From contig CAZQPW010000002.1 in NCBI GenBank assembly GCA_964595305.1, positions 1 to 56,413 of the forward strand: 56,413 bases of DNA, in the 5' to 3' direction. The position numbers and the translations under genes are program-made. Of this stretch, positions 2,639-46,355 are shown piece by piece. Position 1 is the first letter of the stretch. Each line of letters starts with the position of its first letter. This DNA is from an uncultured Candidatus Saccharibacteria bacterium. Its GTDB lineage: Bacteria > Patescibacteriota > Minisyncoccia > Phycocordibacterales > Phycocordibacteraceae. The notes under the pieces were generated by a model. The model ran no database searches, was not told where the DNA came from, and saw only the letters and a program-made list of their open reading frames with translations.

Positions 2639-3786
2639 CAGCCGTGACCAGGTACGCATATATGGAAGTGCGGCCCCGTGTTGAAAGTTGAACTACACGA
2701 ACCTTCGTCGTAAAACGTAGTGCCTGTAACAGTATCTATATACCTGCACCCACTATTACCGTATGGAGTAAAATTTTTCTTGATGCAATCATCTATACCG
2801 ACCACATCTAAGGCGCCGCCACCGCCGTGCGTTGCATGCCCGGACTCACTCCCGCCAGAAATAGTAAAGTTTCCACAAATGTTCTTAAGCCGGTCTAGGT
2901 AATCAACTGTCGAACAGCTGAGCCCGCTCACGTCAGTGCAGCCACATGTTTTTGTGGTTGGACAATGAGCAGCAATATACTGTTGGAACGTTTGATTAAG
3001 TCCGCAACCGCTTGCACGGTTTACGGAAATTCCCTTTGCTGAAAGTGTGTCGCGGAGCGTCTGCTCTGCGGCACGCTTATCTACTGCGGAGCTAAAGCCG
3101 GACTCATTGGTCCCACACTGTGACGGAGGCGAACTCTTTTTTAACTTGGGTGGAGGAGTGGGTGGAATTGGACCAGAAGAGCCGTGCCCAGGAGTAGCGC
3201 CGATCATCATACAGGGAAGCTCTACGGTCCCGACCATGCACGCGCCGGGGCCGATATTGGTTCCAAGTAACCACTGCGATGGGTAGGAAGGAGGGCCGTA
3301 TAGGTAACTCCTGCAGATTTCTGGAGTTTGACAGCACAACATCATCGGGGTTGGTGGCCCAATAGTGACATGTATCATCCCGGGAGGAGCAGTGCAAAGA
3401 ACAATCTCGGTTATTGCACCGCCAAAAGGGATGCCCCCCGGAACTGCCGAGACACCAACACCACCAGTGCCCGAACCAGATCCTCCCGCCGAAGGTGACC
3501 CACCGGCTTGGGCAGGAGGTTGAGTGTTAGGAAATACCTGATCTATCTTTTTTTGCAAAAATCGCTCTAGTGCATTGGTAACGGTACTTTGGAAACGCCG
3601 AAAGAAGGAGCTGTCGAAAAGGGAAGCCTTCTTTTTTGACGCAGGGGCTGGTGTGCTGGTTGTAGTAGTGGTGGCTGCTGAAGTGGTCGTCGCGGTCGTC
3701 GTAGCAACAGCACCAACATACGCAGTTGGAACTACTAGAATTGCAGTTAGTGCAGCAGCAAATACGAATCGCGCAAACATACTCAC
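2635..3786 (-). CDS. Secreted Cys-rich protein with a C-terminal LAS/M15-like zinc-peptidase signature (candidate cell-wall hydrolase)
   Basis: Signal peptide MSMFARFVFAAALTAILVVPTAYVGA, then poly-Thr and Gly/Ser linkers. I count 18 Cys in the mature part. The C-terminus reads SGHATHGGGGALDV ... GPHFHICVPGHGC, resembling the SxHxxGxAxD ... xxH zinc ligands of VanY/M15-type peptidases. Confidence 0.45.
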   Translation of the reverse strand: MSMFARFVFAAALTAILVVPTAYVGAVATTTATTTSAATTTTTSTPAPASKKKASLFDSSFFRRFQSTVTNALERFLQKKIDQVFPNTQPPAQAGGSPSAGGSGSGTGGVGVSAVPGGIPFGGAITEIVLCTAPPGMIHVTIGPPTPMMLCCQTPEICRSYLYGPPSYPSQWLLGTNIGPGACMVGTVELPCMMIGATPGHGSSGPIPPTPPPKLKKSSPPSQCGTNESGFSSAVDKRAAEQTLRDTLSAKGISVNRASGCGLNQTFQQYIAAHCPTTKTCGCTDVSGLSCSTVDYLDRLKNICGNFTISGGSESGHATHGGGGALDVVGIDDCIKKNFTPYGNSGCRYIDTVTGTTFYDEGSCSSTFNTGPHFHICVPGHGC

Positions 3787-43407: not shown

Positions 43408-43686
43408 ATGGCAAACAATGAGAGCTGTTTTATGAAAAAAACCTGTGGCATAAAAGAAGGGTGCGGCCACGGGTCAAAAGTTAAAAATGGAAAAGTCGTC
43501 AGTGGGCCGTGCAAAAACTTTGGGGGTTGCCTTGAAGCAGAAAGAGAACAGCAGCATTATCGTAGAAAAGAGGGGATGGAGAAGCCCGACGGCAGCGTAC
43601 GGAAAGGTTATAAGCCGTTTGTCCCCATCAACCATAGTGTAATCATGGTACTTAGTAACGGAGCCGTAATAGATATCGGGAGTTAG
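43408..43686 (+). CDS. Small Cys-rich hypothetical protein
   Basis: 92 aa. The N-terminal CFMKKTCGIKEGCGHG...GPCKNFGGC cluster suggests metal binding. Confidence 0.35.
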   Translation: MANNESCFMKKTCGIKEGCGHGSKVKNGKVVSGPCKNFGGCLEAEREQQHYRRKEGMEKPDGSVRKGYKPFVPINHSVIMVLSNGAVIDIGS

Positions 43687-43695
43687 TTAAAAAAT

Positions 43696-44067
43696 TTATT
43701 TCTTAACTACGTGAGTTGCGTAGTGTTCGCGGAGCTCTTTTATTAATCCGTCTTCAAACTCAAGCGCCATCATTCCGCGCATCTGCTTTTGTTCTCCATT
43801 TGGTTTTCCGTAATCACACTGCCACTCTACGAGGGCGCTCTCGTCGTCAACGAGCATCTTAATAACGCTTGGCCTTGGGCGCACTTGTTTTGCAATAGTA
43901 TTGTCTTTCCAATATTGAACGATCGCATCGATACCTCGGTACTCTTCGATACTAAACGGTTTGACAGCGTACAGTGCTCCAGCCGCAAAGATTTTATCTA
44001 AATTGCTCGCGTCTTGTCTCTCCCATGCGGAGAAGTATCTTGCTATCGTTTCTTTATTTCTTTCCAT
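43696..44067 (-). CDS. SnoaL/NTF2-like fold protein
   Basis: I chose the internal ATG at 44067 (MERNKETIARYFSAWERQDASNLDKIFA...) because the track extension runs through the tRNA-Ser gene. Confidence 0.6.
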   Translation of the reverse strand: MERNKETIARYFSAWERQDASNLDKIFAAGALYAVKPFSIEEYRGIDAIVQYWKDNTIAKQVRPRPSVIKMLVDDESALVEWQCDYGKPNGEQKQMRGMMALEFEDGLIKELREHYATHVVKK

Positions 44068-44154
44068 GGCGGAGGCGGAGCGATTCGAACGCTCGGTGGG
44101 TTGCCCCACGCCTGTTTTCAAGACAGGTGCACTAGACCACTATGCGACGCCTCC
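44067..44154 (-). tRNA. tRNA-Ser (anticodon UGA), class II, CCA encoded
   Basis: The minus strand reads GGAGGCGUCGCAUAGUGGUCUAGUGCACCUGUCUUGAAAACAGGCGUGGGGCAACCCACCGAGCGUUCGAAUCGCUCCGCCUCCGCCA. It has a long variable arm GUGGG-GCAA-CCCAC and anticodon loop CUUGAAA. Confidence 0.9.
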
Positions 44155-44403
44155 ATTTGAAGTATGCTCTAAAATGGCCTTTTTTTCAAGGAAGCCTGCG
44201 GGATGTTTAAGGTGCCACTCTCTTTTTGTCGCCGCTCCTTTCTCATCAAACGATTCTTTATATATCAATTTCCACGGTGTATACGGACGAGTTGATCTTG
44301 TTCCTCCAGAATTATGTTGGTGCAGCCTCTTTTCAATATTTGTAGTGCAACCAATGTAGTGCCTGTTAAAGCGAACACTCTTTATTATGTATACAAAATG
44401 CAT
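44140..44403 (-). CDS. Stand-alone GIY-YIG nuclease-domain protein (UPF0213-like)
   Basis: MHFVYIIKSVRFNRHYIGCTTNIEKRLHQHNSG... carries the GIY-YIG signature (VYII...YIG...R...H). The last 5 codons (GGVA-stop) are encoded by tRNA-Ser positions 1-15. Confidence 0.75.
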   Translation of the reverse strand: MHFVYIIKSVRFNRHYIGCTTNIEKRLHQHNSGGTRSTRPYTPWKLIYKESFDEKGAATKREWHLKHPAGFLEKKAILEHTSNGGVA

Positions 44404-44451
44404 GTGCCAGACCACTACCCCAACGGGGACCCTTCGGGTTGCGACGCCTCC
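44404..44451 (-). pseudogene. Duplicated 5' fragment of tRNA-Ser (acceptor + D arm) interrupted by a 22-nt double hairpin
   Basis: The minus strand reads GGAGGCGUCGCA[ACCCGAAGGGUCCCCGUUGGGG]UAGUGGUCUGGCAC. This matches positions 1 to about 26 of the intact tRNA 300 nt downstream. It abuts the GIY-YIG start codon. Confidence 0.7.
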
Positions 44452-44524
44452 GCTATAGAGTATGCGCTATTTTTGGTGTTTTTTCAAGATTTTATCTTTT
44501 CCGGCTGAGCGGTATACTGGTGCT

Positions 44525-44929
44525 ATGGCCAAGTACCTTGGGCTCGACTACGGCACTAAACGGGTGGGGGTTGCACTAACAGACGAAAGCGCGAGCGTCG
44601 GCTTCCCACGCGAAGCGCTCGACAACAACAGCAAGCTTATGCCTACGTTGATCAAGCTTATTCGAGCTGAACACGTTGACGAGGTGGTGATCGGCAAGTC
44701 AACCGACAAAGACGGCAAAGAAAATTCGCTGATGAAGGCCGTCCGAGACTTTGCGAACGAACTAGAGGCGAAGGCTAATCTCACTGTTCATTTTGAGCCA
44801 GAGTTTTATTCGAGTCAGGAGGTCCGCGCACACACCAAAAAGAAAATGCACGTCGACTCTCAAGCCGCTGCTATTATTCTGAATAGCTTCCTTACTAAAA
44901 TGAAAAGCTCAAAACACCCACATGATTAA
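44525..44929 (+). CDS. ruvX: YqgF/RuvX putative pre-16S rRNA nuclease
   Basis: MAKYLGLDYGTKRVGVALTDE is the canonical YqgF N-terminus. ATG at 44525. Confidence 0.85.
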   Translation: MAKYLGLDYGTKRVGVALTDESASVGFPREALDNNSKLMPTLIKLIRAEHVDEVVIGKSTDKDGKENSLMKAVRDFANELEAKANLTVHFEPEFYSSQEVRAHTKKKMHVDSQAAAIILNSFLTKMKSSKHPHD

Positions 44930-45245
44930 CATCGACCAGTTTAAGGAAGTGGAAATCCGCGTAGGTACGATACTTACCGCAGAGCCGGTAGAGGGAGCAG
45001 ACAAGCTTTTGAAGTTGAGCGTGGACTTTGGAGAAGCAGAGCCAAGGCAAATCCTTTCAGGAATCCGAGAGTTTGTATCTCCCGAAAGTATGATTGGCAA
45101 GCAGTTTCCGTTCGTCACTAATCTTGAGCCACGCACCATCAGGGGGCACGTTTCAAACGGAATGATCTTGGCGGTAGGAGAGGGGGAAAGCTTTTCGCTC
45201 CTTTCGCCCACCAACTCTGTTCCTCCAGGTAGTCGCGCGAGGTAA
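44922..45245 (+). CDS. tRNA-binding domain protein (CsaA/Trbp111/EMAP-II-like OB fold)
   Basis: FKEVEIRVGTILTAEPVEGADKLLKLSVDFGE...RQILSGI is the typical tRNA_bind domain pattern. 107 aa. Confidence 0.8.
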   Translation: MINIDQFKEVEIRVGTILTAEPVEGADKLLKLSVDFGEAEPRQILSGIREFVSPESMIGKQFPFVTNLEPRTIRGHVSNGMILAVGEGESFSLLSPTNSVPPGSRAR

Positions 45246-45284: not shown

Positions 45285-46355
45285 ATGTCTGCACATGTCC
45301 TTTCGCGTTGGGGCTGGGCTCCGCCGCAGTATCTGCTCATGCCGGCTTTTGGCGTCGACATTTCTCGTGGCTCAATAAAGTTTGTGAGTGTTGGTGCGTA
45401 CCGTACTGAACTTCGACCAAAAAAGTTTGGTGAAGTGGCACTCGAGCCGGGGGTTTTTGCAGAAGGGGAGATCGAAAAGCCCGACGTAATACGGGGACAT
45501 TTAAAAAGCCTTCGCACGCACCATGGCCTGAAGTTTGCTCACGCCTCGCTTTCAGAGAAGAAGGCGTTTATATACCAAACCGCAATTCCAAACAGTACTA
45601 AGGATATTAAGAGTGCTGTTGAGTACGAACTTGAGGCGCACGTGCCGTTGCCGCCGCAGGAGACTGTCTTTGACTATGAGTTGGTACGTAGAGGTGGAGC
45701 GACGAGTGTGTATGCGGTCACTGCATATGCAAAGCGTGTGGTTGAAATGTACGAAACTGTTTTCCGCGAAGCAGGGGTCACACTCTCATCTCTTGAAGTC
45801 GAGGCACATGCTGTGGCGCGAGCGGTATTACCTAAAAATAAAAGGGATGCGGTTACGCTCGTAGTCGACATGGGGTCGCACACCACAAGGATCACTGTTG
45901 TAGATGGTAGTGCGGTTTCGTACACAGCAACAATGGATTTTGGAACTGAAGTTTTGCTTGACTCGATTATGCGGCACCTCGGTATTACTCGAGAGGAGGC
46001 GCTGGTTGTAAAAGATACTCGCGGCTTCCTTCTTGGCGAGCACAATAGGAATGTGATTGAGGCGGTGATCAACCCCATCTCAGTTTTTAGAGACGAACTT
46101 AAGCGGCACATCGAGTACTGGAACCATGCGCCGGCAGACGACATTCCGCGACCGCCGATTACCTCAGTAGTTCTTTCTGGTGGTAACGCTAACATGCGCG
46201 GGCTCGTAGAATATATTTCAGACAATACGGGGCTGATAGTAGAGCCTGCAAACGTGTGGCGCAACCTCTTTTCGCTCGATACGTATGTGCCCCCAATGTT
46301 GAAAGCAGAGTCGCTCGAGTTTTCAACCGCAGTCGGACTCGCAATAAAAAAGTAA
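45285..46355 (+). CDS. pilM: Type IV pilus assembly protein PilM (actin-like ATPase fold)
   Basis: FGVDISRGSIKFV, the later VVDMGSHTTRITVV, and VVLSGGNANMRGL match the PilM/FtsA-like phosphate motifs. An alternative start exists at 45339. Confidence 0.8.
   Translation: MSAHVLSRWGWAPPQYLLMPAFGVDISRGSIKFVSVGAYRTELRPKKFGEVALEPGVFAEGEIEKPDVIRGHLKSLRTHHGLKFAHASLSEKKAFIYQTAIPNSTKDIKSAVEYELEAHVPLPPQETVFDYELVRRGGATSVYAVTAYAKRVVEMYETVFREAGVTLSSLEVEAHAVARAVLPKNKRDAVTLVVDMGSHTTRITVVDGSAVSYTATMDFGTEVLLDSIMRHLGITREEALVVKDTRGFLLGEHNRNVIEAVINPISVFRDELKRHIEYWNHAPADDIPRPPITSVVLSGGNANMRGLVEYISDNTGLIVEPANVWRNLFSLDTYVPPMLKAESLEFSTAVGLAIKK

Follow-up and report, generated by a model that had tools for sequence, protein, structure and literature searches.

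How does a small nuclease gene come to lie between an intact tRNA-Ser gene and a broken copy of the 5' part of that same gene? This arrangement is found on the minus strand of a 56,413-nucleotide stretch of DNA (called the window below, at its full length) from an uncultured Candidatus Saccharibacteria bacterium (contig CAZQPW010000002.1 of assembly GCA_964595305.1), where an open reading frame (ORF) of the GIY-YIG nuclease superfamily ends inside the tRNA gene and is preceded by a tRNA fragment that carries two short hairpins. The sequence-only reading of this DNA had seen in it the footprint of a small mobile cassette, one with a GIY-YIG gene that is aimed at tRNA-Ser and restores the tRNA, and this view is now supported by sites that lack the cassette and by further copies of it. 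With a probability of roughly 0.6, the element is a homing-type selfish cassette specialised on tRNA genes, here recently inserted into tRNA-Ser(UGA). The cassettes appear to be an undescribed family of tRNA-gene parasites in the Candidate Phyla Radiation (CPR, Patescibacteria). The features of the locus are the following.

44440-44451, minus strand: upstream copy of tRNA positions 1-12 (GGAGGCGTCGCA), the left 12-bp direct repeat, an exact repeat with its partner at 44143-44154.
44418-44439, minus strand: 22-nt double hairpin, ACCCGAAGGGT followed by CCCCGTTGGGG, recognised in the sequence as two 4-bp GC hairpins.
44404-44417, minus strand: rest of the crippled tRNA copy, TAGTGGTCT (tRNA positions 13-21) followed by GGCAC, with a collinear 9/9 match to 44134-44142 and delimited by remnant boundary analysis.
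44140-44403, minus strand: GIY-YIG nuclease ORF of 87 aa (MHFVYIIKS...NGGVA*), PF01541, E 2.5e-16.
44067-44154, minus strand: intact tRNA-Ser(UGA) with encoded CCA end (ARAGORN; Rfam RF00005, 56.3 bits).
44143-44439, minus strand: present/absent segment of 297 bp, defined by the contig joint 44142>44440 in runs X2, X3, X4 and X5.
43696-44067, minus strand: SnoaL-like gene directly downstream, context only, PF12680, E 3.4e-14.
44522-44929, plus strand: RuvX gene, divergent neighbour, context only, PF03652, E 1e-25.

Read on the minus strand over 43700-44800, the order is flank B, tRNA-Ser positions 1-12, the double hairpin, tRNA positions 13-21, the ORF and the intact tRNA-Ser(UGA). All features of the first description, namely this order, the 12-mer, the D-arm and flank repeats, the 22-nt hairpin insert and the overlap with the SnoaL-like gene, are present where it had placed them. 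The 12-mer TGCGACGCCTCC occurs exactly at both 44143-44154 and 44440-44451, and the TAGTGGTCT copy at 44409-44417 is collinear with it. The hairpin insert (ACCCgaaGGGT at 44439-44429, then CCCCgttGGGG at 44428-44418) falls exactly between tRNA positions 12 and 13 of the crippled copy, the 3' end of which (GGCAC) directly adjoins the ATG of the ORF. From this ATG at 44403 the ORF runs to a TAG stop at 44142-44140, and tRNA positions 1-15 double as its last five codons with the TAG stop (GGA GGC GTC GCA, after AAT). Neither ARAGORN nor Rfam revealed an interruption in the downstream tRNA-Ser, no Rfam intron family was detected at E <= 10 across 43500-45000, and tblastn found no second GIY-YIG copy in the window.

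Presence and absence of the cassette at this one site were established from public runs containing the stretch, which were located and their contigs aligned to the window. The best-matching run (X1) carries the filled form, and in four runs of one study (X2 to X5) the contig joins 44142 to 44440, skipping 297 bp, with a read depth of zero over the ORF. This joint lies in the 12-bp repeat, all 12 letters of which fit both sides, and limits of 44155-44451 are equally possible by sequence. Next to the joint, no differences were found over 258 nt in X3 to X5 and two over 561 nt in X2. A near-identical strain has the SnoaL-like gene, tRNA-Ser, flank B and RuvX without hairpins or nuclease. The segment itself comprises the ORF body with flank A, the double hairpin and D-loop piece that precede the ORF, and a single copy of the 12-bp repeat; it encodes the GIY-YIG ORF only, and no integrase. 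The SnoaL-like gene is covered by the X2 to X5 contigs and is present in the empty allele too, the junction between this gene and the tRNA is unchanged there, and the intact tRNA-Ser sequence is unchanged both in the empty allele and in the relative L091.

The direction of the change was read from relatives, with RuvX as synteny anchor for finding empty sites. The closest RuvX is 71% identical (L091), followed by those of L094 and L095 at 56%. All three loci keep the divergent pair of RuvX and tRNA-Ser(TGA), with no ORF and no hairpins between the two; because the site is empty in these relatives, the empty state is ancestral and the insertion in the window is derived. The comparison with L091 and L094 establishes a gain, and a loss is plausible as well. 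Empty tRNA-Ser sites, the search for which the sequence-only reading had proposed, were therefore found in two forms, as the 297-bp joint of X2 to X5 and in L091, L094 and L095. GC content was also considered as a mark of foreign origin, and its slight dip (0.41-0.43 vs 0.49) is not decisive. As to the surroundings, the gene order of RuvX, a tRNA-binding-domain (CsaA-like) protein (window 44922-45245) and PilM (45285-46355) is kept in L092 and L094; relatives carry a VTT-domain gene between the tRNA-binding gene and pilM, and the window does not. In L092, the tRNA-Ser(TGA) beside RuvX (289-374) has an orientation opposite to that in the window, L091 and L094, representing a local tRNA inversion.

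The same architecture recurs elsewhere. ORF homologues that are 56-65% identical were followed to their contigs, and four such loci agree in their order: a 5' fragment of tRNA-Ser, the two GC hairpins, the D-loop piece and the ORF are followed by an intact tRNA-Ser, at positions 13-15 of which the ORF has its stop. Neighbourhoods vary, including Cpn60/LemA/M48 or topA/PPDK at the homologue loci vs RuvX/SnoaL in the window. Scans of species genomes and metagenomes added 86 loci, and 77 distinct loci remained once duplicates were removed. It is this comparison, with dozens of unrelated loci built alike, that shows the arrangement to be more than chance, and not statistics on the window. The distribution is patchy, with 25 matches to a narrow motif among 185,579 species genomes, and all genome records are CPR/Patescibacteria except three (L010, labelled Gammaproteobacteria; L015 and L022, labelled Bdellovibrionales). 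A same-strand tRNA starts between -30 and +200 of the ORF end at 58 of the 72 loci with at least 100 nt downstream, and its start lies exactly 15 nt before the ORF stop in 35 loci. The downstream tRNA is mostly tRNA-Ser (51/58; GGA 42, TGA 5, CGA 3, GCT 1), the others being Lys, Ala, His and Phe. At five loci (Ile, Pro, Val), designated type 2, an intact tRNA stands immediately upstream of the ORF and a 5'-truncated, hairpin-bearing copy of the same tRNA downstream, into which the ORF reads. A double hairpin adjoins the ORF in 63 of the 69 loci with enough sequence.

Among 2.9 million viral contigs only 3 weak matches to the ORF were obtained, none beside a tRNA, and the hairpin-plus-fragment DNA pattern was absent from the same collection; phage carriage was rejected on this ground. 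A full-text literature search returned no description of tRNA-linked Slx1-like GIY-YIG cassettes or of the double hairpins. Two side observations concern the neighbourhood and annotation of these loci. Directly downstream of the cassette, L001 (4396-6754) and L002 (1224-3582) have an EcoRI-like methylase and a GmrSD-like (DUF262/HNH) gene, a pair that resembles a small defence island; L003 has the upstream synteny in common with L001, but not the methylase and GmrSD-like genes. Moreover, for P0003, P0012 and many 50%-cluster representatives, gene callers begin upstream and translate the tRNA fragment and hairpins (..PKG.LRA..), so that miscalled starts add spurious N-terminal extensions of 20-40 aa, and some 'two-domain' proteins are tandem copies.

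Several loci retain both halves of a resident tRNA gene, and it appears from their sequences that some cassettes bring their own complete tRNA and split the resident one. In L060, the 5' remnant consists of GGAGGCGTCGCA, the hairpins and TAGCGGCCTAGTG, and the 3' remnant of the variable arm, the T arm with a hairpin unit in the T-loop, and ..CTCCGCCTCCGCCA. The two remnants fit each other (5' GGAGGCG.. with 3' ..CGCCTCCGCCA) and enclose the ORF together with a complete tRNA-Ser of a different acceptor stem (GGAGGGT/ACCCTCC). Arrangements similar to that of L060 occur in L009 and L068, and likewise in L026, where compensatory changes in three stems separate the truncated tRNA-Val from its intact counterpart, indicating that the truncated copy was once a working allele of other descent. 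Crippled copies stand on both sides of the ORF in L012, L032, L058 and L061, L027 and L029 contain remnant arrays, and truncated or frameshifted ORFs were encountered in L073, L077, L078, L083 and L088. A homing cycle would be expected to pass through such stages, from invasion and fixation to decay and re-invasion.

Three of these loci are of interest in their own right. L024 (3271-3760) contains a tandem repeat of a crippled tRNA-Pro with D-loop and T-loop hairpins plus a GIY-YIG ORF, the second ORF copy beginning immediately after the first remnant. In the rRNA operon of L027, double-hairpin units (458-479 and 2620-2641) stand on both sides of the 16S gene, which is followed (2757-3380) by a crippled tRNA-Ile, an intact tRNA-Ile (2911-2986) and the GIY-YIG ORF (3001-3309); a second crippled tRNA-Ile comes after the ORF, with units in the D-loop and the anticodon loop. 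In L029 (2560-3097), a second ORF ends ...ENGSVA* inside a tRNA-Ser called with anticodon ACT by ARAGORN, and is followed by two 5'-truncated, hairpin-bearing tRNA-Ser copies as a remnant array.

The protein is recognised as a GIY-YIG nuclease by PF01541 (60 bits vs a cut-off of 22.6; domain at residues 5-71). Its catalytic motifs are intact, Y5, Y16-I17-G18, R26, H30 and E62 being invariant across the family alignment, which contains no invariant Asn after E62. The AlphaFold2 model has a mean predicted local distance difference test score (pLDDT) of 92.3, with strands at 2-9, 15-20 and 44-52 accompanied by helices. Profile comparison with the PDB gave 1zg2 at 7e-13, 1ywl at 2e-11 and Slx1 at 1e-7 to 5e-5, and Foldseek matched the Slx1 nuclease domain with a template modelling (TM) score of 0.62-0.69 and a root mean square deviation of about 2 A, vs 0.45-0.50 for I-TevI and 0.50 for UvrC. 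The nearest folds are UPF0213 BH0048 and the Slx1 nuclease domain. Judged by sequence and predicted fold, the protein is a minimal stand-alone domain of the GIY-YIG superfamily and of the Slx1-like/UPF0213 group. Neither the extent of PF01541 nor the model leaves room for a DNA-binding module, only one C-terminal helix lying beyond the domain; TIGR01453 scored 19 bits vs a cut-off of 56, and no I-TevI-type family matched. The clade has the specific motif REW(H/Y)LKHPxG(Y/F), and with 22,455 representatives at E <= 1e-3 it belongs to a large wider family. A neighbour-joining tree of the 72-aa core was resolved too poorly to judge whether hairpin position is inherited with the ORF.

The 22-nt insert that the sequence-only reading had described in the fragment is real, and far from being incidental, it is a hallmark of the family as a whole, conserved and covarying. 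In total, 77 units were collected (49 distinct by sequence), and the 47 with 3-nt loops were aligned. Every unit adds exactly 22 nt and duplicates no target sequence. Remnants of tRNA-Ser, which end 5-14 nt beyond the unit, have it after position 10 (13 loci), 12 (12 loci), 15 (6 loci) or others (3 loci), and in other tRNAs it is found in the D-loop, in the anticodon loop (L027) or, in L024, L028, L060 and L068, in the T-loop just ahead of TTCGA. Seven units have the 3-nt loop of another hairpin as their site, and no unit occurs in any working tRNA of the collected loci. In the 47 aligned variants the two 4-bp stems covary, with 62 double-sided changes vs 15.8 in shuffles (0/500 reach 62); although the units were chosen by a pairing criterion, a unit was also present in each fragment that had been found independently via its tRNA prefix. 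The stems close with C-G, A-T, T-A or G-C pairs. Pairs 1-22, 5-18 and 11-12 show no covariation, and a single 22-nt palindrome or long hairpin was rejected for that reason.

The loops read NAA and TTN with A6 and T17 invariant, and the unit thereby looks alike on both strands (dyad symmetry). This symmetry, the lack of enrichment of G-T pairs in the stems, and the formation of the two mini-hairpins of the window's leader under DNA but not under RNA folding parameters indicate that the constraint acts on DNA. DNA mini-hairpins of the C-GAA-G type have unusual stability. The HPxG codons of the nuclease (ACCCnnnGGGT-like) were considered as a functional in-frame hairpin or as a source of the unit and were rejected: codon usage in KHPxG(Y/F) is not biased toward pairing (CAT 49 vs CAC 17, the third base of the x codon mostly A, four pairs in 1/66), and the resemblance to half a unit is therefore a coincidence of Pro and Gly codons. 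A general miniature inverted-repeat transposable element (MITE) was likewise rejected: the 56-kb window contains a single copy of the unit, and of 97 units counted over 328 kb of loci, 93 are no farther than 400 bp from the ORFs (86 kb), which leaves 4 for the remaining 242 kb.

The addition of exactly 22 nt with no target duplicated, invariant A6 and T17 in the NAA/TTN loops, a dyad symmetry that has no RNA rationale and folding with DNA, not RNA, parameters could also mean that the double hairpin is itself mobile, being cut and/or pasted by a structure-specific Slx1-like nuclease into the loops of folded tRNA genes in the neighbourhood of its own gene. The ORF-plus-tRNA module would then be the autonomous partner of this 22-nt dyad element and survive by supplying an uninterrupted tRNA. 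Such an explanation, which is considered rather unlikely, overlaps with a homing cassette and differs from it in the job of the nuclease. It would accommodate the variable insert positions (tRNA 10, 12, 15 and 23; D-, anticodon and T-loops; some nested), the units in resident DNA on both sides of the L060 cassette, which hence arrived at or after invasion, the L027 units that also flank the 16S gene of the same operon, and the closeness of the fold to Slx1, a branched-DNA nuclease. However, GIY-YIG enzymes are not known to paste DNA, the cassette is without a strand-transfer or ligase function, and the units are nearly absent away from cassettes, unlike proliferating MITEs; moreover, selection alone, tolerating inserts only in the loops of dead copies, could yield part of the pattern. 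Equally doubtful is the proposal that double hairpin and 87-aa nuclease constitute a new DNA-structure-directed mobile system, by which the folded (cloverleaf or hairpin) DNA of highly transcribed stable-RNA genes would be recognised. In such a system the enzyme would cut in loops and the hairpin unit would be installed there; resident tRNAs would be disabled stepwise, and the cassette would come to supply the only intact tRNA, making the host dependent on it. If true, the Slx1 lineage would here be put to selfish use for the first time, and targeting would follow nucleic-acid shape, not sequence.

A host function is a further alternative. Dunin-Horkawicz et al. (PMC1564403) regarded prokaryotic Slx1-like proteins as minimal, vertically inherited and repair-related, described the Slx1 lineage as lacking the conserved C-terminal Asn, and derived selfish GIY-YIG enzymes from the other (UvrC+) lineage; one Slx1-like protein is fused to a TrmH-like tRNA G18 methyltransferase. 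The ORF could accordingly be a vertically inherited, sporadically lost host gene, its product being co-transcribed with tRNA-Ser and acting in DNA repair or tRNA/RNA metabolism, and the tRNA fragments could be local duplications. The ORF is evidently constrained, its phylogeny roughly tracks tRNA identity, and L001 and L003 have upstream synteny in common. Nevertheless, the gene is dispensable in a near-identical strain, absent at the same site in relatives and patchily distributed; resident tRNA genes are split by cassettes with a foreign tRNA allele, tandem re-invasions and remnant arrays occur (L024, L027, L029, L012), and some copies are pseudogenised. These findings make a host gene improbable. 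The tRNA-linked clade does not fit the picture of Slx1-like proteins given in PMC1564403, and a mobile Slx1-like clade would alter the view of these proteins as vertical repair factors.

The transcription signals of the locus bear both on how the host keeps its tRNA and on what the leader upstream of the ORF might do. A consensus scan placed two promoter-like sites.

44459-44487, minus strand: promoter-like site B, TTGAAA-N17-CATACT, within flank B.
44161-44189, minus strand: promoter-like site A, TTGAAA-N17-CATACT, embedded in the C-terminal codons of the ORF (LEKKAILEHT), 6 nt upstream of tRNA position 1.

Site B is positioned such that it may drive leader, ORF and tRNA, and in the empty allele it is the sole promoter-like site before the tRNA. 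The flanks (44161-44190 vs 44459-44488) are identical at 22/30 positions with a 1-nt offset, and their local alignment has modest significance (p about 0.007 vs shuffles). The nuclease had been thought to have captured the tRNA promoter and leader; the reverse fits better, the promoter-like sequence of the tRNA lying in the C-terminal codons of the nuclease. CTT GAR AAA AAR ... CAR TAT encodes the conserved C-terminus LEKKxIIxQY, and in the window, L001 and L003 these codons read TTGA(A/G)A-N17-CA(N)TA(T/C) a few bases before tRNA position 1, so that the last codons of the nuclease look like a sigma-70-like promoter of the tRNA. Moreover, compared with the ORF 3' ends at other loci, flank B is similar to them (p about 0.003 for the best local score), in contrast to the naive flanks in L091 and L094 (p 0.12-0.99). 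Flank B reads as a decayed ORF 3' end, which either belongs to the left arm or stems from a previous occupant of the site. The expectation of such a relic in every locus holds only in part: flanks A and B are strongly alike in L003, L004 and L015 and modestly so in the window, and most loci show no such resemblance. At the other end of the tRNA, the ATG of the SnoaL-like gene (44067-44065) has its A in common with the encoded CCA end; through this overlap, SnoaL mRNA would begin or be freed leaderless.

The leader lies between a promoter-like site and the ATG, the protein is without a DNA-binding domain, and the arms on both sides of the hairpins match tRNA-gene sequence. A leader RNA (tRNA 1-12, hairpin scaffold, tRNA 13-24) might on these grounds bind the nuclease, pair through its arms with the template strand of cassette-free tRNA-Ser genes and direct a cut at the scaffold position. 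This is very improbable, as the hairpin-bearing copy of type 2 loci is downstream of the ORF, the arms are plausibly mere remnants of resident genes, and the tRNA in cis is a perfect self-target; dyad-symmetric loops and the absence of a G-U excess argue for DNA and not RNA, and the predicted RNA fold is without the covarying hairpins. Rfam recognised no known RNA family in the leader at E <= 10, and its fold energy was not better than that of shuffles (z about -0.3). Both the RNA guide and the host function are less likely than the homing cassette and its main rival, the mobile double hairpin. A one-off scar without mobility, in which the tRNA 5' end was locally duplicated around an unrelated ORF, agrees with the modest similarity in the window beyond the 12-mer and 9-mer and is refuted by the same architecture at dozens of loci with different neighbourhoods and tRNAs and by the exact 297-bp presence/absence polymorphism.

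For the homing-type cassette, the following course of events is proposed. Its left arm would consist of a promoter-bearing decayed nuclease 3' end, tRNA positions 1-12, the double hairpin and tRNA positions 13-21, and its right arm of the nuclease C-terminal codons, which would double as a sigma-70-like tRNA promoter, and the 5' part of the tRNA. The nuclease is predicted to break or nick a cassette-free tRNA gene in the D-arm region, and repair of the break would copy the cassette in from an allele that bears it, the only homology portable between genomes probably being that of the two arms derived from the tRNA. With a copy of the 5' part of the tRNA at its end, or in some relatives a complete tRNA, the cassette leaves the host with a working tRNA-Ser, and the displaced tRNA piece would persist as a crippled remnant. 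Recombination between the 12-bp repeats could remove the cassette again. The double hairpins, restricted to dead tRNA copies, would act at the DNA level, either as a structure recognised by the Slx1-like enzyme or as a breaker of homology or target sites in remnants; this is the least certain step.

Several points weigh against this proposal. Cleavage of the tRNA gene by the nuclease is a prediction. Known GIY-YIG homing endonucleases possess a DNA-binding domain and this protein does not, and 87 aa sits badly with the recognition of a long specific site. Since the tRNA is regenerated with the very sequence of the presumed target, no immunity of the filled allele is visible. The empty allele of X2 to X5 already holds the ORF-3'-like flank B and may represent a secondary loss and not a never-invaded site; moreover, these contigs are assemblies and not reads, in which rare co-existing alleles would be missed. 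The nearest homologue of the window's ORF is just 65% identical, so no donor is known. Only one copy per genome was found with the narrow search motif, and spread within a genome is hypothetical. Finally, hairpin units were evidently installed in resident DNA, as in L060.

CPR bacteria have tiny genomes, usually with single-copy tRNA genes. A parasite that lives in tRNA genes and rebuilds or replaces them would illustrate how selfish DNA persists in genomes with almost no spare DNA, and its coding economy is extreme, the stop codon coming from the tRNA and the tRNA promoter apparently being written in the nuclease C-terminal codons. In practical terms, the cassettes account for recurrent artefacts in the annotation of CPR metagenome-assembled genomes, where assemblies break at tRNA-Ser, pseudo-tRNA fragments are called and 'endonucleases' receive N-terminal extensions. 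If the specificity of so small a nuclease (87 aa) for tRNA genes or small DNA hairpins could be demonstrated, the enzyme would also have practical interest. The double hairpins form a concrete puzzle that is open to experiment.

Among known systems, integrase-borne islands and prophages use tyrosine or serine integrases, usually insert at the tRNA 3' end and regenerate the tRNA. The cassette is like them in its tRNA target, in carrying a partial tRNA copy, in leaving the gene intact and in the direct repeat left behind; unlike them, it contains no integrase, duplicates the tRNA 5' end and measures 297 bp in all. For the hairpin unit, the closest known parallel is the double-hairpin elements (DHEs) of fungal mitochondria. 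According to PMC10085805, DHEs are thought to be mobile, have a strongly conserved sequence (Paquin et al. 2000, cited there) and are found in intergenic DNA and inside rRNA genes. Set against that account, the CPR unit is likewise a short GC-rich sequence that folds into two hairpins, and it is found in tRNA remnants and rRNA flanks; it differs in its 22-nt length, 4-bp stems and 3-nt loops, and in being confined to crippled tRNAs (and one rRNA operon) near a GIY-YIG gene. Homology of the two is unlikely.

The closest functional precedent is SegB of phage T4, the site of which includes the conserved tRNA T-psi-C motif and which drives the inheritance of itself and neighbouring tRNA genes (PMC2330249). 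In both systems a GIY-YIG gene lies among tRNA genes, is present or absent between relatives and has no intron or intein. SegB, however, is an I-TevI-type enzyme with a DNA-binding region, in contrast to the bare 87-aa Slx1-like domain of the CPR nuclease, and it resides in a phage, not in a CPR chromosome; tRNA overlap, duplicated tRNA fragments and double hairpins are all absent from SegB and all present in the cassette. By sequence and fold the best matches are UPF0213 (YhbQ-type, COG2827) and Slx1-like proteins, which are likewise stand-alone domains of about 90 aa. Their characterised members are without the REW(H/Y)LKHPxG(Y/F) motif and the tRNA overlap, and whereas the Slx1-like lineage is described as vertical and repair-related, its CPR member behaves as the gene of a mobile cassette.

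Endonuclease ORFs of organelles, such as the Allomyces atp6 element and the 'mobile ORFs' of Glomus, insert into a host gene and carry a replacement gene end. By analogy, these gene-end-replacing ORFs appear closest in logic to the cassette: the resident gene end is destroyed, a substitute is brought and the displaced end is kept as a remnant. Their targets are mitochondrial protein-coding genes and their enzymes usually LAGLIDADG or larger GIY-YIG proteins, whereas the CPR cassette targets a bacterial tRNA gene and takes its stop codon from the tRNA. Free-standing homing-type nuclease cassettes are already known, and the hairpin system is possibly the new component.

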